Positions 2,847 to 20,000 of a stretch of DNA of 20,000 nt are shown piece after piece. Each line of letters begins with the position of its first letter. The first letter of the stretch is position 1. The translations under genes were made by a program, and so were the position numbers. The notes under the pieces are model-generated. The model did no database searches and had not been told where the DNA came from. It saw nothing but the letters and a program-made list of their open reading frames with translations. Source of the DNA: an uncultured virus (IMG/VR IMGVR_UViG_3300021090_000018) (lineage: Duplodnaviria > Heunggongvirae > Uroviricota > Caudoviricetes); the IMG/VR virus record IMGVR_UViG_3300021090_000018; one strand, given 5' to 3'.

Positions 2847-3118
2847 GTGATGAGACATGGACACAATGGAAACGCGATCAGCAGGAACGCCGAGCGAAGC
2901 GGCTCCCGATCCGTACCGAGGAGATTCTCCATCTCAAGGTCCAAGGCTATGACGTGGAACAGAAAAGCGACTACCACTTTCGGATCAACGGCATCCTGGA
3001 TCTGTGGCCGATCCACAACCGCTGGCACCTATTATCGACGGGCGAGCGTGGTGGCGCACAAAACCTAGCTGATTTTGTGAAATCAAGGATTCATCCGAAT
3101 GAGCGCAAGAGCGGTTGA
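2843..3118 (+). CDS. Hypothetical phage protein (MSDETW...)
   Basis: ATG 2843 overlaps the previous stop (ATGA); protein-like composition. Confidence 0.75.
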   Translation: MSDETWTQWKRDQQERRAKRLPIRTEEILHLKVQGYDVEQKSDYHFRINGILDLWPIHNRWHLLSTGERGGAQNLADFVKSRIHPNERKSG

Positions 3119-3647
3119 TATGACCGGCGTGGTCAGTGGGCGGTGGACCGTCCTGTCCTATGCCGGAACAAAAGGCAGTGGCGGGATGGCAGTGTGGTTG
3201 TGCCAATGCGAGTGCGGCGAGATACGGGAAATATTCGGGGTTGTTCTCAGAAATGGGAAAAGCCTGTCGTGTGGCTGTTGGCAAAAGGAAGGCATTGCCG
3301 CACGCAATAGAAAACATGGTCTCTTCGGAAGCCGGACCTATGTGACGTGGCGCTGCATGCTTCAGCGTTGCTATAACCCAGACAGTCCGAGTTTTAAGAA
3401 TTATGGCGGACGAGGCATTTCTGTTTGTAAGCTGTGGAGGCAAGATTTCCGAGAATTTCTTCACGACATGGGCGAGCGTCCTGATGGGAAAACGTTGGAC
3501 AGGATTGATAACGATGGTGGTTATTCCACAAATAATTGTCGTTGGGCTACACCGATCGAGCAAGCGAACAATAAGCGGGGCGGAGCCAAGAACTTGGCGC
3601 TCTTTGTGAAGGAACGGATTCGACCCACGGAAGGAATGAATCAATGA
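3099..3647 (+). CDS. HNH endonuclease (CxCxCG / SCGC / YGGRGI family)
   Basis: WLCQCECG, SCGC, M.QRCYNP, YGGRGISVC, TLDRIDNDGGYS..NCRWAT. Confidence 0.9.
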   Translation: MSARAVDMTGVVSGRWTVLSYAGTKGSGGMAVWLCQCECGEIREIFGVVLRNGKSLSCGCWQKEGIAARNRKHGLFGSRTYVTWRCMLQRCYNPDSPSFKNYGGRGISVCKLWRQDFREFLHDMGERPDGKTLDRIDNDGGYSTNNCRWATPIEQANNKRGGAKNLALFVKERIRPTEGMNQ

Positions 3648-4138
3648 CCAATTTTTCGTACCAGTCCGGTGATAGATATGGTCGATATACACTTGTTGAG
3701 CAGTATCCTACTGACACGCGGCGTCAGGCTCGCTGGCTATGTCGATGCGACTGCGGCAACGAGAAGGTCGTCCGGCTTGCGCATCTCCGCCACGGAGTTA
3801 TTGTTTCATGTGGATGTTTCGGGCACGCCGGAAGGCCGAAGCACGGATGTTCACATAACGCAAACGTTCCTGAATACCTCGTCTGGAAGCAGATGAAGGA
3901 ACGCTGCTCAAATCCTGCAAATAAGAGCTATCCGAACTATGGCGGACGCGGCATTATGGTCTGTGAACGCTGGAAGGAAGACTTTGCCGCATTCTATGCC
4001 GACATGGGTCCTCGTCCGACTCTTAAGCATTCGATCGACCGAAAGAATAATGACTGGAACTATGAGCCAGACAACTGCCGATGGGCGACGAGTACTGAGC
4101 AACGCCACAATCGACGTGATGCGGAGAGGATAGCATGA
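3644..4138 (+). CDS. HNH endonuclease (same family as 3099-3647, tandem homolog)
   Basis: WLCRCDCG, SCGC, MKERCSNP, YGGRGIMVC, SIDRKNNDWNYEPDNCRWAT. Confidence 0.9.
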   Translation: MTNFSYQSGDRYGRYTLVEQYPTDTRRQARWLCRCDCGNEKVVRLAHLRHGVIVSCGCFGHAGRPKHGCSHNANVPEYLVWKQMKERCSNPANKSYPNYGGRGIMVCERWKEDFAAFYADMGPRPTLKHSIDRKNNDWNYEPDNCRWATSTEQRHNRRDAERIA

Positions 4139-4791
4139 CGAGATTTCCATTATATTGGCCCGCTGGCTGGAAGCGCACCAAGCCTGAGCTGCGGAAGTCC
4201 GCCAAGTTTTCCAAGCGCGTGCATTCATCGAGCGGATCGGGTGATACGTACCGTTCCTGGTCGAATCACAGTGAGGTGACAATTGCTGAAGGGACCAAGC
4301 GCGTTCTCGAACAACTGAGAGCCCTGGGTGTTCGTGAAGGCGATGCGATCATTTCCACCGACCTCAAACTGCGGTTGGATGGATTGCCGTACTCAGGCCA
4401 GCGTGAGCCAGAGAACCCCGGCGTGGCCGTCTATTGGAAGCGCGGCAAGGAGACACAGCACAAGGCGATGGCGATCGATCAGTACACCCGCATTGCCGAT
4501 AACCTGGCGGCGATTGCGGCCACGTTGGACGCCATCCGGGCCATCGAGCGACACGGCGGCGCAATCATCATGGAAAAAGCGTTTCTGGGCTTCCAGCTTC
4601 TTTGTGAGCCAAATAATTGGCGGGCGGTGCTGGGATTCACAGAGGATTGCGCTCCGACGTTGGATCAGGTGAAGCGAGAATATCGGATGCACTCCATGGG
4701 CGCGCACCCCGATCACGTCGGCGGCTCGGATGTGAAACAGAAAGAACTGAACTGGGCGATGGATGAGGCGAGCAAGGAATTGCAGCCATGA
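4135..4791 (+). CDS. Phage J-domain (DnaJ-like) protein
   Basis: N-terminal FPLYWPAGWKRT, PGVAVYW, C-terminal VLG..VKREYR..HPD..GGS..ELN J-domain with HPD motif. Confidence 0.85.
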   Translation: MTRFPLYWPAGWKRTKPELRKSAKFSKRVHSSSGSGDTYRSWSNHSEVTIAEGTKRVLEQLRALGVREGDAIISTDLKLRLDGLPYSGQREPENPGVAVYWKRGKETQHKAMAIDQYTRIADNLAAIAATLDAIRAIERHGGAIIMEKAFLGFQLLCEPNNWRAVLGFTEDCAPTLDQVKREYRMHSMGAHPDHVGGSDVKQKELNWAMDEASKELQP

Positions 4792-4955
4792 CCCGTGACG
4801 CATTGATTCGCTATGGGTGTGATAGCTGCAAGGTGCAGAATATCGGCACGTTTGTCTTTCTGCATGACGGGACAGACCCCGTGAAAATCTGGATCTGCGA
4901 GACCTGCCTGCGGCAGTTACGAGACTGGCCAGGGGACGAAGAGGTGTCCCCATGA
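4788..4955 (+). CDS. 55-aa Zn-ribbon-like protein (CDSC...CETC), absent from the ORF track
   Basis: ATGA overlaps at both ends; AAGGA SD; two CxxC motifs. Confidence 0.7.
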   Translation: MTRDALIRYGCDSCKVQNIGTFVFLHDGTDPVKIWICETCLRQLRDWPGDEEVSP

Positions 4956-5194
4956 CCACGCCGGCGCGGCTCGTGAGATATGAGGAAAGTGATTGCCCTC
5001 GCTGCAGGATCCCGGTCCCGCTCGATGAATGCAAGACTGGGGTGTTCGTCAAAGCCGCCGACGTGGAGGCGCTACTGAATGATATGAGACGGCTGTTGGA
5101 GCATGTGCCAGGGCATACCGACTGCGCAGACTGTCGCGCTGAGGCGAAGGCCCTCCTCGCCGCCCTGGCCACACACAAGGCGGGTGGACGATGA
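4952..5194 (+). CDS. Hypothetical phage protein
   Basis: GAGGT SD, ATGA coupling, CxxC motifs. Confidence 0.75.
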   Translation: MTTPARLVRYEESDCPRCRIPVPLDECKTGVFVKAADVEALLNDMRRLLEHVPGHTDCADCRAEAKALLAALATHKAGGR

Positions 5195-5373
5195 GACAAT
5201 TGACTCGGGTTGAGCGTGCCGCGATGTGGTTCTACCATAATGAGTACGCGGCACAATCGTTGAGCGCCATCGATTTCTATCAGCAGTTGCCTTACGACAA
5301 ACAGGCGCTCATGCAACAGATGGTGGATGAGATTCTAGGAGTCAAAACCATAACCCCCAGGAGGCGAGGATGA
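5191..5373 (+). CDS. Hypothetical phage protein
   Basis: ATGA coupling at both ends. Confidence 0.7.
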   Translation: MRQLTRVERAAMWFYHNEYAAQSLSAIDFYQQLPYDKQALMQQMVDEILGVKTITPRRRG

Positions 5374-5726
5374 GCAAGAAGACGTATGTGTTCTTCGGAC
5401 GCTATTCGAGCCCAGAGCCCGTGCTGGAGCTGATGATCGAACCATTGCCGTGCATCGCGTGGCCAGTGGCGCACCTGGAATTTACCAAGCTGCGTCGCAT
5501 GGAAATTCTTGCCGAGATGTTCAGTCAACGCCAGATGTGCGTCCCGCGCTGTGATCGAGGTGCTGACGTGATGCAATGGTTCAGCCGTTCGTGGATCGCC
5601 TCTTTGCCATTCATGACACGGTCGTCGATGGCCACGAAGCCGAAGAAACCGTTTGTGTATTCCGGTATCCATCCGCTCGATGCGTGGACGGACAGGACGC
5701 CATGCCCCCCAGGAGGCGAGGATGAG
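5354..5726 (+). repeat. Exact 21-bp direct repeat CCCCCAGGAGGCGAGGATGAG at 5354-5374 and 5706-5726
   Basis: Both copies contain SD + ATG and bracket the ORF 5370-5729. Confidence 0.9.
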
Positions 5727-6260: not shown

Positions 6261-6661
6261 GCGAGCAGCTGATACGAAAGCCATGCCCGCGATGTGGCAC
6301 GACGCAATGCTTTGGTGTGGATGACAAAAGCTGTAGTGATTTCTGTATTACTCGACACCAACAAGAAAATGCCACCCTCCGCGCCGAACTGGCCCAGGTG
6401 ACGGAACGAGCGCGGCAGCTCGCGTTCGATAACAATTTGCTGAACCAAACGAATGAATTTCTCGCGCAACAGCTCGCCGAGGCGACGACGGAGCGGGATA
6501 CCTTAGACAAACTGACCTCGATGCAAAGTGGGAGTTTCACCATGTTGCACCAGCAGATCGCTGAGCGTGATGCTCAGATCACCTATCTCCAAGCCGTGAG
6601 CACACAGCAGGTGGAGAAGATTCGGGCACTGGAGCACGACCTGGAAGAGTGGAGCGGATAG
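6257..6661 (+). CDS. Hypothetical protein, Cys-rich N-terminus plus coiled coil
   Basis: GGAGG SD; CPRC..C..C..C followed by a heptad-like Q/E/L-rich helix. Confidence 0.75.
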   Translation: MSEQLIRKPCPRCGTTQCFGVDDKSCSDFCITRHQQENATLRAELAQVTERARQLAFDNNLLNQTNEFLAQQLAEATTERDTLDKLTSMQSGSFTMLHQQIAERDAQITYLQAVSTQQVEKIRALEHDLEEWSG

Positions 6662-6705
6662 GTGAACGCGAATGCCTGGCCTTGGTGCCAGGGAGTGCCA
6701 AAGCC

Positions 6706-6996
6706 ATGAGTTTCCGAAGCCCTAAACTCCTGAATGCGGCGAGAGATCAACCCTGCATGTTGTGCGGGTCCACCGGCATGACGGTCGCTGCCCATGCGAA
6801 CAGCGTGGCCCTCGGTAAAGGCACCGGCATCAAGGCCCCTGACCATCGAGTGGCGTTTGTCTGTGGGTACCATCACGACCTGATCGATGGTCGGGCCGGA
6901 CGTCTCAACAAAGAAGAGAAGCACGAGCTATGGATGCAAGCGTACCTCAAAACAATCGCGCTCTGGTTCGAGCGTGACATCGTGAGGGTGAAATGA
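6706..6996 (+). CDS. DUF1364/YbcO-like putative His-Me nuclease
   Basis: RSPKLLNAARDQPC..C..TVAAHAN..GKGTGIKAPD..AFVC..HHDLIDGR. Confidence 0.75.
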   Translation: MSFRSPKLLNAARDQPCMLCGSTGMTVAAHANSVALGKGTGIKAPDHRVAFVCGYHHDLIDGRAGRLNKEEKHELWMQAYLKTIALWFERDIVRVK

Positions 6997-10715: not shown

Positions 10716-10906
10716 CGCCGATCGTCTTCCACGCGAGCGTCAAGGGCTTCACCTCGGATGAGATTGGGCAATCCAAGCTGTCGTTTATCGTGCCAGATTG
10801 CGATAAAGACGCAGCGCATGAGGTAGGAAAATTGACCGGGTGTGTCCTCATGGTCACCGTGATGCTGGAGAAAGATATTAAGGCTGGAAGGAGAGGACGG
10901 ACATGA
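10712..10906 (+). CDS. Hypothetical protein
   Basis: AAGGAG SD, GTGA coupling. Confidence 0.7.
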   Translation: MTPIVFHASVKGFTSDEIGQSKLSFIVPDCDKDAAHEVGKLTGCVLMVTVMLEKDIKAGRRGRT

Positions 10907-11460
10907 AACTCTGTGAATGTGGATGCGGATCGCCAGCACCAATTGCCAGACAGTCAGGATCGCTAAGAGGCTACGTAAAGGGTCAACCAACCAGATTTGT
11001 CTTAGGGCACGCGAATCGGGGACACATAAGGGAACGAAGCGCGAATTGGCGAGGTGGACGAAAAAGATCAGATGGTGGGTATATCGAAATACGCAAGCCT
11101 GAACATCCACGAGCTGGTCCAGCAGGTTATGTCAAGGAGCACATCCTCGTGATGGAGGACATGATAGGGCGATTTGTGGTTTCGCCAGAAGAGGTCCATC
11201 ATATTGATCGTGACCGAGCCAACAATATCCCCGAGAACCTTTCTCTCTGCAAGAACAACTTTGAGCATAAATTGCTGCATCGGTGGATGGAAGCTCGGGA
11301 AGCGTGCGGACATGATGATTGGCGCAAGTGCGTATACTGCAAACAGTGGGGTGCGCCAGAAACTGTGCGACCACATAATTCCAAGAAATCCTATCAGGCC
11401 ACGGGTACGCACCCGTCATGCAAACGACAAGATTCTCAACAAAGGAGGGCAAAATCATGA
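10903..11460 (+). CDS. HNH homing endonuclease (HNH_3-like) with N-terminal CxCGCG module
   Basis: LCECGCG..RFVLGH, NWRGG..GY..HPRA..GYVKEHILVME..EEVHHIDRDRANNIPENL. Confidence 0.9.
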   Translation: MKLCECGCGSPAPIARQSGSLRGYVKGQPTRFVLGHANRGHIRERSANWRGGRKRSDGGYIEIRKPEHPRAGPAGYVKEHILVMEDMIGRFVVSPEEVHHIDRDRANNIPENLSLCKNNFEHKLLHRWMEAREACGHDDWRKCVYCKQWGAPETVRPHNSKKSYQATGTHPSCKRQDSQQRRAKS

Positions 11461-12522: not shown

Positions 12523-15500
12523 TCAATGCCGCAAAGCAAGCTGTCGGTCGGATACCATCTTTGCTAGTCGATTCTTCTGCTCTCGCAACCGGTCAATCTG
12601 CACCCGTTTCTGTTCACCGGAGAGCACCCGAGACTGTTCAACCATCTTTATTCTAGTATTTATCGAGGACTCCTCGCGCTTCACCCGCTCAATCATCGGA
12701 TAGAGCGCGAGCTTCTCCCGTTCCTGCTCACGAATCGTCCGTGCACCTTCGAGATCACCACGTTTCAGCGCATCACGGTAACTGCCAAATGCTTGTTCAA
12801 CCTCAAGCGCCTGGTCATAAAACTGTGTGAGGTACTTGCTCGATCCACTCGGCAACGTCTCCACGAAATTCCCGGCGAGGAACACGTCCTTCAGTGCCAG
12901 GTTCGGCCTAGTCCCACGATCCACCATCGGGCGAATGCCATAATCCAGGACGGTCGTCCCCATCGTGCCCAGCCAACTAAAATACCCGCGTACCAATGCG
13001 TCCACCTGCACAGGCGAGAGACTGTCCCAGCGCCCCATTGCGAGCTGCGTTGGATCGGGGAGACCGAGCTGCCCCAGCATTCTGGCGATCTCACTCGTCC
13101 GCTCGGTGTAACGGTCCTGCTTCCGTAACCGTTCCATGCCTGGACGTTCGATCGGTTGGCCCGTAAACGCATCTTTATTCGCGTAGAGATCCATCAGCGG
13201 TTTCAGCAGTTGCGGCGTTGGGTTCATGCTCAATTGATTCGAGACGACGGCCGCCAGCCGCTCACCAAAGAATTTGCCCGTCATTTCTTGATCGATCAGA
13301 TATTCCACGCTCCGTTCAGCGATGGTGCCAATCGCGCCGATTTCAAACGGCTTGGGAATGCGGAATGCCACCCCCGCCACCTTAAACCACCAGTTATTTT
13401 CTCTGTCATACGGTTGCCGCTTTTTCCAATCATCATCGTCTTTATAGGCCAGCATCAAGGCAATCGACGCGAGCGCGACCGTCGCCAAGGTGGTACCCAT
13501 TCGACGGTAATCTTCCTTCGTGGCCCTGCCGAGCTTATAGAGGCCTTGCAATCTGGCTCCTGTGAACGGGACCACTTGCGTCAGAATCCTGACAGCGGCC
13601 CACTTGCCAGACAAACTAAAGTCCATGAGATCGCGGGCCCAGAACGTCGCCTCCTGGTGACTCATGCCTTTACTCAGCAGACGCTGATAGAGTGCCGCAC
13701 GGTTCACCTGTTCCCCGCGATCGCCAAACTCCTGATAGGCCTCGAAGGCCGGTTGAATCCGCTGCTTCCAGAACTTCGTGATGGCGCCGGCATCGCTGAG
13801 AATCGAGTCAGGATCAACCCCTTGTTCGATGAGTCGCCTGGTGCGGTCGGCATTGTTCCCGTCCAACATGGTCCCGAAACGCATCATGCCCCCACCAGCG
13901 AGGAGCTGTGCACGGGTTTCGGATTCGAGTCTCGTCCCCTTGATGCCTTCGCGGATATTCTCAAGAGGGTTATAGGAGAGGTCAGCGGTCCCGATCGCCT
14001 GAATGGAATCGCGGATCAAGTTGCGAATCTTGTAGGCCGGGTTCACCGTCACGGCAAAGGAAAAGTAGCGCTTCATCGCTTGGAACGGCTTCGCAATCGC
14101 GCCAAGCCCAGCATAGTGGAGGGCGGCGATGGCATCCAGGAGGGCGGGATCGGTGACACGGAAGGTGACCGGCTTCCCCTGATCCATATAATGAACCAGA
14201 TCCTTCTCCGTGGAACCGGACGGCACTTCCTGCGCCACGCCGGCCATGACGGCCGCATTCAGCGTTTCCTTCGCCGCTCGATTCTTCGCTGAGGCGGTGA
14301 TGAGATGCGACCAGTTCTGCAGGAGATTAGCCAGGAGATCATCGTTCAGATGTTCCGTGCCCCCTTCGAGCTTCTTCCAGGCATATTGATTGACGAGGCC
14401 CGGCTTGATGCCAAACCCCGGCGCGACCCCTTCCTCATGCAACCGATAGAACGGCACGTAAGGCTGGTTCTTGTAGAGATCACGCACCTCCGGGCTAATC
14501 AACCCAGAGTCCACGCCGATCTTCACCATCGCATCGTTCCAACTATTCAGCTCTCGGAGTGCGGTCAGATATGCCGCTTCCCGTGAGGCACCATTCTTCA
14601 TGGTCCCGCGGTTCAGGGTCTTGAGCGCGGCAATGTCCTGCTCGCGGTAGAGGTTTTCGAGTCCGATCGCCTTGAGACGGTCTGCGCGTTGCGCCGCCAC
14701 CCATTCCATGAAACGGTCTTGCTCGCCATGGAGAGCGGAGAGCACTTTCGAGAACCCATTCATGCCATCCGCTTCTCGATAATCGACGCGGTAGGCCCCA
14801 TCGGAATCGACGTAGGGCTTGCCGTACAGCAACAGGGCTTCCAGGGTTCCGTCACCCGCCTTCGTCATGCGTGAGAGAATGTAGGCCTTTTTGCTGTAGT
14901 CCAAGATCGGCGCATACTGATCGAAGAGGCCTTGCTGCAGCGTCTGCTTCCAGGTCTGTTTGAACGAGTCCAGCTTTTCATGCCAGGTCTTTGGCGTGCC
15001 GTGCACGTGTTGCAATGCGGTCTGCTGTGTTTCAGTCAGTGCACCGAGATGCGCGTGTCGAGCCGAATAGGGGGCAGGCGTCTTGTTCTGGATACCGGGG
15101 AACTCGGGCGAGCGGAGTTCGTTGTAGGTCAGGCCGGCTTGACGTCGTCGCTCAAACACTGGCCCGCCCGGCTGCGGGCCGGAATCGTCAGGGTTTTCGC
15201 CTTCATTCTTCAGGAAGTCTCCAAATTGATCTTCTCCTGATGGGTGATATCCCATAAATCTCGCCCATTTCTCGTTCTTCTTAAATGTATACTCCACTGC
15301 CCGCCACATGGTTTTAGCCCCGTCACGAAACCACGCCTTCTCACTGACAACAGGTCTCATGTCACCATTCGATACGATCATCCAGTGAGGCCTAGAAGGG
15401 TCTTTTGCTACCTCCCAATAGCTGTCTCTCAGGTGAATAGATAGCCGTGTAGCATCGAAAACACGTGCAGCGTCTTCGCGTTTGCGCTCTTGGTGGATAG

Positions 15501-18500
15501 GATGCCGATTGATCGACCAGGCCTTGAATCGCTCGAGTGCATCTAGAAGGTTCGCGCTGAACTCATCAATGGTAGACGCTTCAAAATTTTCGGCGTGTGA
15601 CCTATCGTCTGATATCCTTAGACGAAGAGGACCATTCAGGACTGGATCGTGAAGAATTGTTGGCGTGTATGTTTCAGGAATAGAAGGCGAGTAGTCGTCG
15701 CGCCCAGGCTCAGGGGGTACTTGCGCGTCATCTGAAGAGCCTGGCCCCTGGTTGGTGGCCATGGAGGGGAGTGTAGCCGATTTGGGTTCTACTTGTGAAG
15801 GGCTGGTGCCACGTCGCTGTACGGCGGCGCGGTCGTCCAGTGCGGGGGACGGCACTCGACTGCGGCCTCGTAGATTCGCTGGGGGTCCAGTCCCTTTTCC
15901 TCGGCCTCCGTCAGCCACATTTTGACGGTCGAAGGATGGACCGGATTCTGCATCGCGGCTAAAATTCTTGTCAGATAATCCATCTCCGCCGAGCCAAAAC
16001 GGGCGTTGGGCGTCGAGGTCTCTGGCGAGGTCGTCGATTGATCGGGCATGAGGACCTCCGTCTAGCGCCTCCATGAGACGCCGTTGCAGTCGCTGTAATG
16101 TGGCCAGCCCCACGATAGCATAATTCTGATCCAGTTGGCGAGCAAAGTGTTCGGCGCGTTCATCCTTGTGCGACGTGATCACCTGTTGATGGGTCAGTTC
16201 GTGCATGAGCGTTTTGAGCGCCGCAGCGGCCGTGTGTTCAGCCAGCTCCTCCTCGGTAATACGTCCGCGTTCGACGGCTTGCTGCATGGACCACAGCAGC
16301 CCCCAGGGATTCAGAATGACCTGATCGGACCCGCGCAGATTCACCCCATGATAGTAATCATCAGGGCTTAAGCCCACGAAGGTCGGGGAGCCGAAGTCTG
16401 TATCGGAGGCGGACAGGGTATCGGCGAGTTCTTCGAAGACCTCCCTGAGTCGCTCGCTGACCCGCTTCACATAGGGCTTCGAGGCCAAGTCCCTCATCAT
16501 TTCTTCTGGGAATTGCTGGGAGGAATCGATGACTTTTTGGCCTGTGTCTCCGATAGGAGAACCAGCCTCAATCCCCTGTTCAAACTGCGCCATGGTGGGC
16601 TCGCGGTCGGAGTTGCCACGTCGTTCGAACAGCGCCGTCCCTTGATCGGTCTCTTTGGTCTGCATGGTGTCAAAGAGCGCGTCGAATGCCGTGTTGATCG
16701 CCTTCCGTTCTTCCCCTGCTGGGTATGGCTGCTTCCAGCCCCACGGAGTAGGAACTCTTGAATGCGTCCCGTAGGCGATGAAATCGTTGTGCTGCCCCTT
16801 GGCCGCAAGGGTGTCCTCCACGTAGGCGGCAAAGGCGCGAGCGGCCATCTCATGCGGGGTGAGCCAGTAGGACTCGACCCGGCCCTGATCGATGCTCTTC
16901 GCTTCACGGGCGTACTCGGTCGGAATCCGCTTGATCTTCTCAGTACCAGATTGTGCATCAGACAGCATCTTCAGTCGCTCACTGTAGCGGTTCATGTAGC
17001 CACGGAGATCGTCGAAGACCCCTCGCACGTCGCCAGACCCAAAACCGCTCCGACCGCGCACGGTCTTCTGGATCGCACTCAACTTCTCTAGGGCCTCATT
17101 CGTCCAGCGACCGGACGCGAGATAGCGGCGTGTTTTGTTTTTCGCATCACTCACCTTGAACTCCGTCGACAGGAATTCACCCGCAAGAATCTTCGCGGCA
17201 ATCCCGTCGAACTCGGCCAACTGTTCCGCTGTGGCTGGCGCGGCCTTGCGCTTGTAGTATTGCTCGTCAAGTTGCCGTGACAGCCCACCATAGGGACCGT
17301 TACGGATCTCGTTCAGTTTACTCTCAACATCGTTCCGTGCTTCCCCAACGAACCGCTCCACCTTCTGCGCGTCTTCGGTATATTGCTCCGCTCGCGTGAA
17401 CATGGTGTCGATGAGCGTCGTGTAGGCCGCACGGACCTCTTCACGAACCCCTGAATCTTTCCGCGAGAACCCGTGACTCACATAATCGGTCGAGGGCGCG
17501 TTCGCGTCGTAGACCAGATCCCCACGGTCATTGCGGATCTTCGCGCTCTTAGCCTTCTTGTCTTGCCGACCGAAATAGTGATCCGTGCTGTGAAACCATT
17601 CGTGCGCAAGATGGCCGGCTCCCTCCATCTTCGTGAGATTGATCACCCCGTACTCACGTTCATAATGCGCGGCGGCTCCTGTGAGACCGTGTCCTCTGGC
17701 CCCAAACGCGAGAGCCAGTTCACCATTCAGTCCGATCGCTTTCGGTGGAATATGAAGAATTCCAGCCAGGTCGAGAAGTCCATCGTAAGCATGGTTCATC
17801 ACCGCTTGACGGTCATCTTGGTTCTGCCAATTCCCGAATTCGACCGCTCTGAAATTAAAGGTGTCCTTGAAGTCGTTCGCCTCGACATTCTTCCCGTTGC
17901 GCCGATCCTCTCCGGTACGTGTGACGGTCTCAGGTCGTGGAAGAATCTCCTCGCCAAAGTTGGTCTTGGTCTCAATGATCGATTCGGCGTGCTGAATCAT
18001 GTACCGCTGCGCGTCTTCCTCAGTGGGGAACGACTGTTCGACCACCTGCACAATCTTGCGGTCCCCGATCTTGCGATAGATTTCCCATTGCTCGCCTTTC
18101 GCTTTATAGACACGATGGTTGCGGGAAACCGCCGCGAGCGGAATGGCCGCTTCCGCTTCCTCCTTGGTGTCAAATAGCGTGCGCACAGCTCGCTCTGGTC
18201 GACCTGCAAAATCGGTCTTTTTCGTGTCCAGCAGCGACCATTTGCCTTCTTCGCCCGGACGTGCGCTTTTCAGAATCTGTGACGCGACGTAGCGCTTCCG
18301 CCAGGTGGGGATGTCATCTTTCGGCCTGGCCACCTTGGGTCCAGTCGGACCAGTCTTTTCTGCCAAGTCTTTGCGACTTCCGCCAATGTGTTCTCCTACG
18401 TCAGAAATCTTGGACTTCACGCCTTCGATCTGATCCGCTGCACTCCTGAGCGCCTCAGCGAGAATGGCGGTGGGGGCTTTGGGTCCAGCCGCATACGGCT

Positions 18501-20000
18501 TGCCTATCTTAGCGATCGCAGCATCTCCGACTGTCCATTGGCCTGACTCTGGTGCTGCGGCTTCTGGGAGTGTCGTCTGTTTAGGCTCCGGTATCTGTGC
18601 CGCCCTCGAGAATAAGGGGGCTTCGTCTGGTTGCGCTTCTCGCCCAATAATTGGTCGTTCCCCAATGGTCGGCGCCGGCACGTCGAAGCCCAATTGCTCC
18701 GGCCCCTTCGCTTTCGGCGGCTTGATCGTTTGGGCTTTCAGGGTGAACGTGTCCGCATCGGAGGCTTTCGGTTCCTCGGCAGGGGCCGTGGTTTCAGCGG
18801 GGATGGATGCAGCGACAGGCGCCGCGTTCGCCTTCGAAAAATACTCCTCCACTGCCGCATTCGTGGCCGCCAGTCCTTTCGGCAGCGTGATCCCTGATCG
18901 TCGTTCGAACTCTCCACGGAGCGTCTTATTCGAGAGATATAGCCATTCGCGCAGCGTTCTGATAGAAGCCCTATCTCCTTGTTCTGCCCCGGTCCAGGCG
19001 GATTCGAATGTCTCGCGTGTCTTGGCGGGGAGGGCCGCGTAGGCGGGGGATTGTGGGGCGGTTGCTTTCTTCCGTGGTGTTGGTATAGTGGGCGGTACGG
19101 AAGCCGTTGAAGCAGCCTCCGTACCTAGCTTAACGTCACTGGAAGGAGTTACGTCTTGCCTGCCTTTACTTGTATCAGATGCAGCGCGGTTTTCACTAGA
19201 CGCACTAGAAGCTGTAGGCCTAACCTCTTTTGCGGCAAGTTCTGCCACGACACGCACCGCCGCGTTGGCCGCGTCAATGCGAACGGATACAGGGAGATTA
19301 GAGTCAACGGAAAACTCCTGAAGGAACATCGCTTTGTCATGGAACAGCATCTCGGGCGTACGTTGCTCTCGTCGGAGTGCATCCACCATATCAACGGGGA
19401 GAGAACGGATAATCGCATCTCGAACCTTCAGATCCTTGGCCGATCCGAACACCAGAGCCATCACTTGCCTTTGACGTGGGACATCGAGACTGCTAAGGCC
19501 TTGAGAGCGAAAGGACTCAGTTTTTACAAGATCCAGAAGATTATCGGTGCTAACCACGGGGGCATCTGGAGAGCCTTCAGGGACAGAGGACTCCTGTAAT
19601 GGCCCGTGCGTAGCCTCAGCTATCAGAGCTTTCCAGTCCGCATCTGTTTTAGGCGCGAACGGTGATTTCCTGAACTCTCTATCGAGCAATAGCAGTTCTT
19701 TTATGCGGGCGACATCTTTCCCTACGTCTCTTCCGCGATCCTTGATTATCTTTTCTACGGCAACTTCCACACGCTTTCTAGACAACGCCGCCTGTCCGCT
19801 GGTTGCCTCCCGATACCACTGCGCCGTCGCACTCCTGAGACCCGTAATCTCCTGATCCGATCCCTTCCCCTGCGTCTCGTTGAAGTAGCGCCCCCCCCGT
19901 TCACTGCCGGCAATCTCCAGATCAGCCTGTGCTTTTTCCGCCCTGGCGAGGAGTTCAGCATTCTGTTCTGGAATGAGCGTTCCACGTGGAACTTGTGCGG
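12523..20000 (-). CDS. Giant polyvalent (probably virion-packaged/ejected) protein, 5' truncated by the window; LPD5-like, zincin/LPD1-like, second HExxH domain, LPD38-like C-terminus
   Basis: Frame read by hand stays open from 19785 to the window end (>2490 aa). DVGEHIGGSRKD; VEFGNW..AFGARG..AHYE..INLTK..AHEWFH (17590-17604); YWLTPHEMAARAF; MHELTH (16189-16203); FRIPKPFEIG..P.LLKPL.DLYANKDAFTGQPI. Confidence 0.9.
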   Translation of the reverse strand, partial: AQVPRGTLIPEQNAELLARAEKAQADLEIAGSERGGRYFNETQGKGSDQEITGLRSATAQWYREATSGQAALSRKRVEVAVEKIIKDRGRDVGKDVARIKELLLLDREFRKSPFAPKTDADWKALIAEATHGPLQESSVPEGSPDAPVVSTDNLLDLVKTESFRSQGLSSLDVPRQRQVMALVFGSAKDLKVRDAIIRSLPVDMVDALRREQRTPEMLFHDKAMFLQEFSVDSNLPVSVRIDAANAAVRVVAELAAKEVRPTASSASSENRAASDTSKGRQDVTPSSDVKLGTEAASTASVPPTIPTPRKKATAPQSPAYAALPAKTRETFESAWTGAEQGDRASIRTLREWLYLSNKTLRGEFERRSGITLPKGLAATNAAVEEYFSKANAAPVAASIPAETTAPAEEPKASDADTFTLKAQTIKPPKAKGPEQLGFDVPAPTIGERPIIGREAQPDEAPLFSRAAQIPEPKQTTLPEAAAPESGQWTVGDAAIAKIGKPYAAGPKAPTAILAEALRSAADQIEGVKSKISDVGEHIGGSRKDLAEKTGPTGPKVARPKDDIPTWRKRYVASQILKSARPGEEGKWSLLDTKKTDFAGRPERAVRTLFDTKEEAEAAIPLAAVSRNHRVYKAKGEQWEIYRKIGDRKIVQVVEQSFPTEEDAQRYMIQHAESIIETKTNFGEEILPRPETVTRTGEDRRNGKNVEANDFKDTFNFRAVEFGNWQNQDDRQAVMNHAYDGLLDLAGILHIPPKAIGLNGELALAFGARGHGLTGAAAHYEREYGVINLTKMEGAGHLAHEWFHSTDHYFGRQDKKAKSAKIRNDRGDLVYDANAPSTDYVSHGFSRKDSGVREEVRAAYTTLIDTMFTRAEQYTEDAQKVERFVGEARNDVESKLNEIRNGPYGGLSRQLDEQYYKRKAAPATAEQLAEFDGIAAKILAGEFLSTEFKVSDAKNKTRRYLASGRWTNEALEKLSAIQKTVRGRSGFGSGDVRGVFDDLRGYMNRYSERLKMLSDAQSGTEKIKRIPTEYAREAKSIDQGRVESYWLTPHEMAARAFAAYVEDTLAAKGQHNDFIAYGTHSRVPTPWGWKQPYPAGEERKAINTAFDALFDTMQTKETDQGTALFERRGNSDREPTMAQFEQGIEAGSPIGDTGQKVIDSSQQFPEEMMRDLASKPYVKRVSERLREVFEELADTLSASDTDFGSPTFVGLSPDDYYHGVNLRGSDQVILNPWGLLWSMQQAVERGRITEEELAEHTAAAALKTLMHELTHQQVITSHKDERAEHFARQLDQNYAIVGLATLQRLQRRLMEALDGGPHARSIDDLARDLDAQRPFWLGGDGLSDKNFSRDAESGPSFDRQNVADGGRGKGTGPPANLRGRSRVPSPALDDRAAVQRRGTSPSQVEPKSATLPSMATNQGPGSSDDAQVPPEPGRDDYSPSIPETYTPTILHDPVLNGPLRLRISDDRSHAENFEASTIDEFSANLLDALERFKAWSINRHPIHQERKREDAARVFDATRLSIHLRDSYWEVAKDPSRPHWMIVSNGDMRPVVSEKAWFRDGAKTMWRAVEYTFKKNEKWARFMGYHPSGEDQFGDFLKNEGENPDDSGPQPGGPVFERRRQAGLTYNELRSPEFPGIQNKTPAPYSARHAHLGALTETQQTALQHVHGTPKTWHEKLDSFKQTWKQTLQQGLFDQYAPILDYSKKAYILSRMTKAGDGTLEALLLYGKPYVDSDGAYRVDYREADGMNGFSKVLSALHGEQDRFMEWVAAQRADRLKAIGLENLYREQDIAALKTLNRGTMKNGASREAAYLTALRELNSWNDAMVKIGVDSGLISPEVRDLYKNQPYVPFYRLHEEGVAPGFGIKPGLVNQYAWKKLEGGTEHLNDDLLANLLQNWSHLITASAKNRAAKETLNAAVMAGVAQEVPSGSTEKDLVHYMDQGKPVTFRVTDPALLDAIAALHYAGLGAIAKPFQAMKRYFSFAVTVNPAYKIRNLIRDSIQAIGTADLSYNPLENIREGIKGTRLESETRAQLLAGGGMMRFGTMLDGNNADRTRRLIEQGVDPDSILSDAGAITKFWKQRIQPAFEAYQEFGDRGEQVNRAALYQRLLSKGMSHQEATFWARDLMDFSLSGKWAAVRILTQVVPFTGARLQGLYKLGRATKEDYRRMGTTLATVALASIALMLAYKDDDDWKKRQPYDRENNWWFKVAGVAFRIPKPFEIGAIGTIAERSVEYLIDQEMTGKFFGERLAAVVSNQLSMNPTPQLLKPLMDLYANKDAFTGQPIERPGMERLRKQDRYTERTSEIARMLGQLGLPDPTQLAMGRWDSLSPVQVDALVRGYFSWLGTMGTTVLDYGIRPMVDRGTRPNLALKDVFLAGNFVETLPSGSSKYLTQFYDQALEVEQAFGSYRDALKRGDLEGARTIREQEREKLALYPMIERVKREESSINTRIKMVEQSRVLSGEQKRVQIDRLREQKNRLAKMVSDRQLALRH
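15770..15799 (-). promoter_or_regulatory. Putative internal sigma70 promoter TTCACA-N18-TACACT
   Basis: -35 at 15799-15794, -10 at 15775-15770, 7 nt before an ATG (15762) in frame with the giant ORF. Confidence 0.45.
15789..16049 (-). CDS. Nested out-of-frame 86-aa gene inside the giant ORF (same strand)
   Basis: CGGAGGTCCTC-ATG ribosome-binding site; mostly G/C-ending codons in this frame; the giant frame over the same DNA is low-complexity G/R/D/P text. Confidence 0.65.
   Translation of the reverse strand: MPDQSTTSPETSTPNARFGSAEMDYLTRILAAMQNPVHPSTVKMWLTEAEEKGLDPQRIYEAAVECRPPHWTTAPPYSDVAPALHK
19062..19089 (+). promoter_or_regulatory. Sigma70-type promoter for the nested antisense HNH: TTGCTT-N16-TATAGT with extended TG
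   Basis: TTGCTT 19062-19067, TGG 19081-19083, TATAGT 19084-19089. Confidence 0.6.
19156..19599 (+). CDS. HNH homing endonuclease with C-terminal HTH, nested antisense within the giant ORF
   Basis: CIRC..FCGKFC, NGYREIRVNGK..EHRFVMEQHLGRTL..ECIHHINGERTDNRISNLQIL..EH..HH, HTH-like ALRAKGLSFYKIQKIIG; SD GGAAGGAG 19141-19148 before TTG. Confidence 0.9.
   Translation: MPAFTCIRCSAVFTRRTRSCRPNLFCGKFCHDTHRRVGRVNANGYREIRVNGKLLKEHRFVMEQHLGRTLLSSECIHHINGERTDNRISNLQILGRSEHQSHHLPLTWDIETAKALRAKGLSFYKIQKIIGANHGGIWRAFRDRGLL

Follow-up and report, generated by a model that had tools for sequence, protein, structure and literature searches.

A complete gene for an HNH endonuclease lies on the plus strand inside a giant minus-strand gene, without breaking its reading frame, in a 20,000-nucleotide stretch of DNA from an uncultured virus of the Caudoviricetes (IMG/VR record IMGVR_UViG_3300021090_000018). 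The whole stretch is called the window here, and positions are counted along it. The dual-strand coding arrangement is real and selected. We consider it likely that the HNH gene forms a mobile, splicing-free, read-through cassette that was inserted backwards and codon-aligned in a gene for a large polyvalent protein. The observations behind this reading are the two open reading frames (ORFs), their codon alignment, the avoidance of antisense stop codons, purifying selection on the HNH protein, a patchy distribution, and the absence of an intein or intron signature. The original prediction, made from the letters of the window, had proposed a splicing-free antisense read-through homing element; our analysis supports it, with homing and translation through the insert being what we infer from sequence.

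The HNH gene is real and intact. It occupies positions 19156-19599 of the plus strand and encodes 147 amino acids between a TTG start and a TAA stop. The ORF, described as intact in the original prediction, matches the Pfam family HNH_3 above cut-off (E 6.9e-10) as well as several PHROG HNH families. Its domain layout is a zinc ribbon (C6, C9, C26, and C30) followed by the HNH_3 core and a C-terminal three-helix helix-turn-helix (HTH). The core residues H77, H78, N86, N90, and H99 and the zinc-ribbon cysteines are invariant across 13 nested homologs, and so is the N-terminal CxxC...CxxxC motif that holds these cysteines. The protein has the beta-beta-alpha-metal HNH motif with catalytic His and Asn/His residues of HNH_3 or I-HmuI-like enzymes, and both sequence and model indicate a separate DNA-binding module of the kind that confers site specificity. 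The AlphaFold model (predicted local distance difference test score, pLDDT, 87.7) contains three C-terminal helices at residues 110-143, and HTH families match the C-terminal part in relatives, for example HTH_23 (E 9e-7) in locus L007. The top solved-fold match of the model is I-HmuI (1u3e; prob 0.99, E 9e-3, 135 columns), with a TM-score of just 0.38 and an identity of 16%. A search of PDB sequences with the HNH alignment profile returned HTH or zinc-finger fragments only.

Putative signals for separate expression were found in front of the gene. The Shine-Dalgarno (SD) sequence of the original prediction is there: GGAAGGAG lies at 19141-19148 of the plus strand, 7 nt ahead of the TTG. An SD-like 4-mer at -18 to -5 precedes 10 of 23 nested HNH genes (the window and the related loci described below), compared with 6% of control positions (P 3.5e-7), and the string AAGGAGT[AT]ACGTC followed by the start codon is common to the window, L011, and L015. 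The predicted promoter-like sequence TTGCTT-N16-TATAGT is present as described at 19062-19089 of the plus strand (TTGCTT 19062-19067, TATAGT 19084-19089), but a stricter scan of the window region for sigma-70 consensus promoters and terminators returned 0 and 0 sites. A TG two bases 5' of TATAGT gives the extended -10 form TGGTATAGT; the promoter-like sequence lies ~70 nt upstream of the HNH gene. Extended -10-like motifs occur within 130 nt upstream in 5 of the 23 nested loci versus 1.9% of controls (P 7e-5). We also observed an 11-nt inverted repeat at 19094-19125 (91% complementary, 10-nt loop) between the -10-like box and the SD, which could form a leader hairpin of the HNH gene.

The minus-strand frame around the HNH gene has no stop between 12523 and 19998, the window end (2491 amino acids), and the 5' end of the gene is beyond the window, giving a protein of >2491 amino acids. 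Coordinate arithmetic confirms that the HNH and giant-gene frames are codon-aligned on opposite strands and that no stop interrupts the latter, as originally stated for a minus-strand ORF of >2490 amino acids. The TTG start of the HNH gene reads as Gln and its TAA stop as Leu in the host frame. We identify the giant gene as that of a large polyvalent protein because it carries LPD38 (E 1e-33), LPD1 (E 3e-20), and LPD5 (E 3e-6); it is a giant multi-module protein with LPD-type domains in a phage-like context, the window otherwise containing RusA, a DNA methyltransferase, and a replication initiator. We found 53 homologs of the giant protein, 1423-4060 amino acids in length. Directly upstream of the HNH region in the host frame lies a module that we call flank A (19600-19998, minus strand; host residues 1-133), and directly downstream lies module B (18829-19059, minus strand; host residues 314 to ~390). 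Among the 53 homologs, more than 40 match flank A at 45-84% identity in their interior (around residues 550-1250). The giant gene therefore does not start downstream of the insert, which rules out the doubt, raised with the original prediction, that it might begin downstream of 19060.

The closest host homolog, P0003, allowed the limits of the cassette to be drawn. Its residues 793-926 correspond to window host residues 1-134 (84% identity), and its residues 983-1090 correspond to window host residues 307-413 (66% identity); module B is also conserved in P0009. The cassette spans 19060-19599 on the plus strand, since homology is lost at ..ATHGP|L and is back at ..AT|APQSP. Its right end is the HNH stop codon, which abuts the last residue conserved with insert-less homologs, and its left end is where P0003 homology restarts and where a variant allele (see below) diverges, at 19059/19060. 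The cassette of 540 nt, or 180 host codons, contains the promoter-like box, a 5' leader, the SD, and the HNH ORF. No target-site duplication or terminal inverted repeat was found at 19060 or 19599. The original prediction of an insert of ~170-180 amino acids in a flexible linker fits the window, where 180 codons sit between modules, but not for a related cassette (L114), which splits an InPase domain.

Many uncultured phages show the same layout. Locus searches were seeded with HNH-frame peptide patterns only and were blind to the host frame, because HNH peptides alone were used as query. Fifteen of the 80 viral loci were nested (L011-L021, L023, L044, L045, and L078); L044 and L045 are identical and were counted once, and L014, L015, and L020 are the same contigs as L001, L005, and L002. 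L007 is nested as well. Among one-per-species genomes, 7 of 80 loci in bacterial metagenome-assembled genomes (MAGs) were nested, with the labels Pseudomonadota, Sphingomonas, Janthinobacterium, Herminiimonas, Opitutia, Prosthecobacter, and Phycisphaerales. These are 22 further non-redundant nested loci, or 23 with the window, at a GC content of 0.33-0.69. In each of them, the antisense frame that wholly encloses the HNH gene is codon-aligned with it and open for 1120 to >2816 amino acids, and the host frames of related cassettes contain ART-PolyVal, InPase, LPD22/23, RadC, and SNF2/Sno modules. At the protein level, a profile of the peptide that the host frame encodes across the cassette (the passenger peptide) matched 2605 representative proteins at E<=1e-3, of which 454 pass a threshold of <=1e-10 and 104 one of <=1e-30. 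Among the best 150 matches, 128 are at least 1000 amino acids long, with a median near 2400, and polyvalent-protein domains were present in 12 of 17 matches checked. Left out of the nested count were L022 and L037, which are free-standing full-length relatives, and L106. At L106 (1164-1823, a Methylococcaceae MAG), a full-length HNH relative is antisense to an ORF of ~219-229 amino acids that is bounded by stops and sits between other minus-strand ORFs; this may be a split, genes-in-pieces form.

The only HNH codons that read as stops in the host frame are TTA, CTA, and TCA, and their avoidance across relatives is clearly beyond chance. Chance is one alternative: an HNH gene of the ordinary kind, placed between minus-strand genes or across them, could face an antisense frame that is open by accident in DNA of moderately high GC content. 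The window taken by itself leaves room for this. The probability of finding none of these codons in its 147 codons is 0.10-0.14 from the codon usage of the giant gene and 0.029 from that of the other plus-strand genes, only 0.03-0.14 overall, and codon-aligned antisense ORFs are common in the giant gene, including one of 378 amino acids at 13156-14292. Both flanks, however, belong to one protein in homologs, and the layout is present in 22 further loci. With expectations computed from the usage of Leu and Ser codons in each host gene, 16 nested loci including the window contain 0 antisense stops versus ~77 expected, the sum of 16 per-locus values (sum log10 P = -39), and the seven MAG loci contain 0 versus 16.5 expected. 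Single AT-rich nested loci (GC 0.33-0.44) have P values of 2e-6 to 5e-4 each. Altogether, the 23 nested HNH genes have none of the three codons in 4000 codons (~94 expected), whereas 57 free-standing relatives have 245 in 8303 and lack them entirely in 6 cases. This strongly positive contrast is the depletion relative to free-standing HNH genes that the original prediction had looked to; it contradicts chance, which we regard as scarcely credible. The nested HNHs share 35-48% amino-acid identity, so codon choice has been replaced many times. We note that the nested HNH genes of L012 and L014 (contig GC 0.33 and 0.40) have a GC content at third codon positions of ~0.40, compared with 0.15-0.25 for free-standing relatives in AT-rich contigs, a contrast that fits recoding away from TTA and TCA.

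Selection on amino acids acts mainly in the HNH frame. Among 16 nested genes, differences at HNH codon positions 1, 2, and 3 are 0.52, 0.39, and 0.62, and amino-acid identity is 0.39 in the HNH frame versus 0.265 in the host frame. The substitution pattern and the identity gap imply that the HNH protein is under purifying selection and that the host-frame peptide is mainly a passenger, apart from stop avoidance. We also considered that the passenger peptide is a functional, folded helical module, with amino-acid selection on both strands. The AlphaFold model of the passenger peptide, built from a 13-sequence alignment (A3), is a bundle of helices, with a pLDDT of 85-90 for roughly residues 20-100, and the presence of the segment in 2605 protein clusters would fit a useful module, as would the third-position variability of nested HNH genes, which by eye is perhaps slightly lower than that of free-standing pairs of similar identity, with overlapping ranges. 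Such dual coding nevertheless seems improbable to us. It is the HNH frame that the substitutions follow, 44 of the 53 host homologs are without the segment, and a Foldseek search of solved structures with the passenger model gave no match (best E 1.5); the helices may just mirror the periodicity and covariation of the antisense of a real protein.

No sign of RNA or protein splicing was found, as the original prediction had stated for both introns and inteins. An Rfam search of 18000-20000 at E<=1 revealed no intron and one noise hit (16.5 bits versus a gathering score of 55.2), and the covariance models of described group I and group II families identified no ribozyme core. A spliced intron is also a poor fit because RNA splicing would not require an open frame. 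In the host frame, no Hint or intein family was detected within 150 amino acids of the cassette at E<=1 in any of the 23 loci. The junction residues in the window, GP|LQ and AT|AP, are unlike the C/S...HN|C/S/T of inteins, no conserved junction motif was seen by eye in the 23 loci, and there is no room for splicing blocks because the 180 codons are accounted for by the antisense of the HNH gene and its leader. Neither a conventional intein nor one of the antisense-endonuclease type describes the cassette.

Another possibility is that the cassette peptide is translated and then removed, by an unrecognised form of protein splicing or, more plausibly, by proteolysis that releases the modules, so that no mature protein would contain it. 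The open host frame fits this as well as it fits retention of the peptide, the window's cassette sits between modules, and autoproteolytic module release has been proposed for polyvalent proteins (PMC5512222). The insertion into the InPase domain at L114 would also do less harm if the insert were excised and the two halves joined again. Simple proteolysis, however, cannot rejoin a split domain, and the absence of Hint families from all 23 loci and the P|L and T|A junctions, with no shared motif, speak against protein splicing. We regard removal after translation as unlikely, though worth keeping in mind.

The distribution of the cassette suggests mobility. The passenger segment was found strongly in 8 and weakly in 1 of the 53 host homologs, at differing positions, and was absent from the other 44. 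P0003 has no HNH-antisense segment at the window's site and carries one ~470 residues later, at a point where the window has no such segment. Homologs without the insert, whose existence the original prediction depended on, were found as seven proteins lacking it at this site (P0003, P0004, P0006, P0013, P0019, P0030, and P0036), although not as an exact insert-less allele at the DNA level. The cassette is present at this site with one flank each in P0005 (upstream junction) and P0009 (downstream junction). A co-occurring variant allele was recovered as a 922-nt contig in DNA runs X1 and X2, which also contain the window and may both be its source sample; it shares 19030-19059 and 19850-19903 with the window and replaces the 790 nt of 19060-19849 by 838 other letters. 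The length difference of 48 nt is a multiple of 3. The depth of the variant is 7.7 in X1 and 12.9 in X2, a quarter to half of the 33.3 and 28.9 of the window form. A metagenome scan with the host N-terminal 600 amino acids gave 9 loci, among them neither the window contig nor the variant allele; 8 matched the antisense-HNH core only (about residues 190-226), and the ninth matched flank A residues 78-130 only. Two near-full-length passenger copies were found in 4 of 148 representative proteins (P0058, P0059, P0060, and P0061), whose genes probably contain two nested cassettes each, judging from the protein sequences. In the HNH tree, 13 of 16 nested HNHs, including that of the window, form one purely nested group (SH-aLRT 94), and the other 3 group with free-standing genes; the minimum number of nested/free-standing changes is 4, versus a mean of 14.7 in shuffles.

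These data also bear on whether the HNH protein is a domesticated resident nuclease, stored on the spare strand and not mobile, that serves, for instance, packaging, degradation of host DNA, or exclusion of competitors. Non-homing roles are known for phage HNH proteins (PMC11855218), the nested clade, whose members are 35-48% identical to one another, is old and diverse, and the window's phage has five more HNH genes. A resident gene is hard to reconcile with the patchy presence and differing sites among close host homologs, the doubled copies, the replacement of the cassette region by the variant allele within one sample, and the homing enzyme I-HmuI as top fold match. We give domestication little credence.

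The insertion sites are diverse. In L114, from a Prosthecobacter MAG, the cassette at 4001-4735 splits an InPase domain (flanks 3101-4000 and 4736-5635): the upstream flank stops at position 53 of the Pfam InPase profile and the downstream flank restarts at 56. The cassette is thus not confined to linkers, as it interrupts a catalytic domain here. In several loci the cassette is adjoined by the ART-PolyVal N-terminal motif (W-F-G-D-S-K..V-D..G.P.V-V) or by whole ART domains, with ART-PolyVal sequence on the downstream side in L021 and L023 and on the upstream side in L011, L014, and L102. In L014 (the same contig as L001) and L102, only a partial N-terminal copy adjoins the cassette. This sequence pattern may mean that cassettes prefer the ART-PolyVal N-terminus as a target, or that it is a flank carried along by co-conversion.

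Several points weigh against a mobile cassette that is read through and retained. Concerning selection on the open frame, the window alone is barely beyond chance, 1 of 12 other plus-strand genes of the window likewise lacks antisense-stop codons, and the combined P overstates independence because the nested loci are related. An insert removed after translation, by splicing or proteolysis, would need the open frame equally. The confident helices of the passenger model imply that this peptide may be more than junk, and the InPase split at L114 is hard to square with a harmless linker insert. With regard to insertion, P0003 carries a different linker of ~55-75 amino acids at the site, in addition to the lack of an exact insert-less DNA allele. 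The flanks of the 16 nested loci share no target: 11 weak pairwise matches were found, some on opposite sides of the cassette, and no single homing site is evident because the flanks are mostly unrelated. As for expression, promoter-like support is confined to 5 of the 23 nested loci, and RNA run X3 yielded three short contigs over parts of the region, including 19204-19371, which are strandless and may be DNA carry-over.

The following mechanism would account for the observations. A self-contained cassette with a promoter-like box, an SD, and a zinc-ribbon/HNH/HTH ORF would have been inserted between two host modules. The sole dangers to the host ORF would be the HNH codons TTA, CTA, and TCA, which selection would exclude. 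The host ribosome would then read 180 extra codons as a passenger segment, with neither RNA nor protein splicing, and the HNH protein would be produced separately from the opposite strand through use of the promoter-like box. By cleaving DNA, the protein may let the cassette move in the manner of a homing element, with polyvalent protein genes as its speciality. The extra peptide may stay in the protein as a loop or linker, or be cut away during polyprotein processing. Cleavage, homing, promoter use, translation through the insert, and the fate of the peptide are what we infer here from the observed layout.

If this is correct, a selfish nuclease gene can settle inside a long, essential-looking ORF without splicing machinery, by lying backwards in register with three codons purged. 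The layout is common, with 23 loci verified at the DNA level and 2605 protein clusters matching the passenger peptide. It also matters for annotation, since the HNH gene goes unnoticed when a gene caller outputs a single giant protein, and a supposed "domain" of 150 residues in such a protein may really be the antisense shadow of a nuclease gene. Nested cassettes lend themselves to the study, in nature, of how selection acts on overlapping antisense genes, and they give a possible handle on module exchange among polyvalent proteins. A broader proposal, which we consider a long shot, is that antisense codon-aligned nesting is a general third lifestyle of homing endonucleases beside introns and inteins, with an HNH lineage specialised on polyvalent genes. 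Cassettes would then mark module joints (sometimes InPase or the ART-PolyVal N-terminus), where breaks and gene conversion would drive module shuffling, the source of the great variability of polyvalent proteins, and the helical passenger would be discarded or reused during polyprotein processing.

The window contains further HNH genes and antisense ORFs. Five more free-standing HNH genes are located on the plus strand (48-485, 3099-3647, 3644-4138, 6649-6996, and 10903-11460; PHROG E 1e-20 to 1e-60), within 12 kb of plus-strand early-type genes. The nested HNH gene has the same orientation as these five and is convergent to the giant gene. The 378-residue antisense ORF at 13156-14292 of the plus strand, codon-aligned within the giant gene, has no Pfam match and is probably a by-product of GC-rich coding sequence. 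This ORF and two other antisense ORFs in the giant gene, at 17473-18177 and 18464-19042, have no family match and were rejected as probable non-genes. The window DNA had no match among phage records and one match only among plasmid records, to 110 nt of an LPD1 region. A tblastn search of plasmids with the HNH protein returned nothing at E<=1e-10, and none of 35 records of cultured phages contained a relative covering at least 80% of the HNH protein.

The cassette can be compared with several known systems. I-HmuI of phage SPO1 resembles the window HNH in having an HNH core followed by a C-terminal helical DNA-binding part. I-HmuI resides in a self-splicing group I intron, whereas no intron family was found around the window HNH. 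Free-standing homing endonuclease genes can split a host gene into two ORFs, as mobE does in nrdA of an Aeromonas phage. Like mobE, the window HNH gene is of homing type and has entered a coding sequence with no intron or intein to carry it; unlike the gene split by mobE, its host ORF stays continuous.

Large polyvalent proteins of phages and conjugative elements have been described (Iyer et al. 2017, PMC5512222), and they share LPD38, LPD1, and LPD5 with the window host gene. In the main text of that article, the words homing, antisense, and intein do not occur, and nested nuclease genes are outside its description. Inteins with an antisense-encoded homing endonuclease of the LAGLIDADG or VSR-like type have been reported in a preprint (bioRxiv 10.1101/2025.01.02.630785). 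The endonuclease ORF there is antisense in an uninterrupted host ORF, so antisense stops have to be avoided, as in the window. These inteins, however, have Hint splicing blocks and are removed by protein splicing, whereas the window cassette is without Hint and its nuclease is HNH.

The closest parallel is the ShiLan domain or "hidden HNH" inserted in actinophage DNA methylases, published in 2025 (Arsenault, Gosselin, and Gogarten, Genes 16:178, PMC11855218), in which a same-strand, out-of-frame HNH gene lies in an open DNA methylase ORF without splicing. The premise of the original prediction, that homing endonucleases in coding sequences need introns or inteins, is outdated by this splicing-free same-strand version. 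ShiLan and the window both have a complete HNH ORF in a stop-free host ORF, no detected intein or intron, a patchy homing-like distribution, and the HNH stop codon at the very end of the insert, and in the window loci selection keeps the host ORF open. The two nucleases are homologous: the hidden HNH of ShiLan gp65 and the window HNH share 38% identity (E 3e-11) across residues 5-112. The HNH gene of ShiLan uses the plus strand, as gp65 does, in a shifted frame, whereas the window HNH is on the opposite strand and codon-aligned, which sets the window apart from a ShiLan-type insertion in this respect. The hosts also differ, being a methylase in ShiLan and a polyvalent protein in the window, and no ribosome-binding site was found in ShiLan, whereas an SD is present in at least 10 of the 23 nested loci here. 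In PMC11855218, the terms antisense, reverse, opposite strand, complement, and polyvalent do not occur, and searches of open-access papers and preprints found no description of the layout of a nested, opposite-strand HNH gene in phage ORFs. The window cassette is an antisense variant, with a polyvalent host, a clade of its own, and a very widespread distribution, of a kind of insertion first published in 2025.

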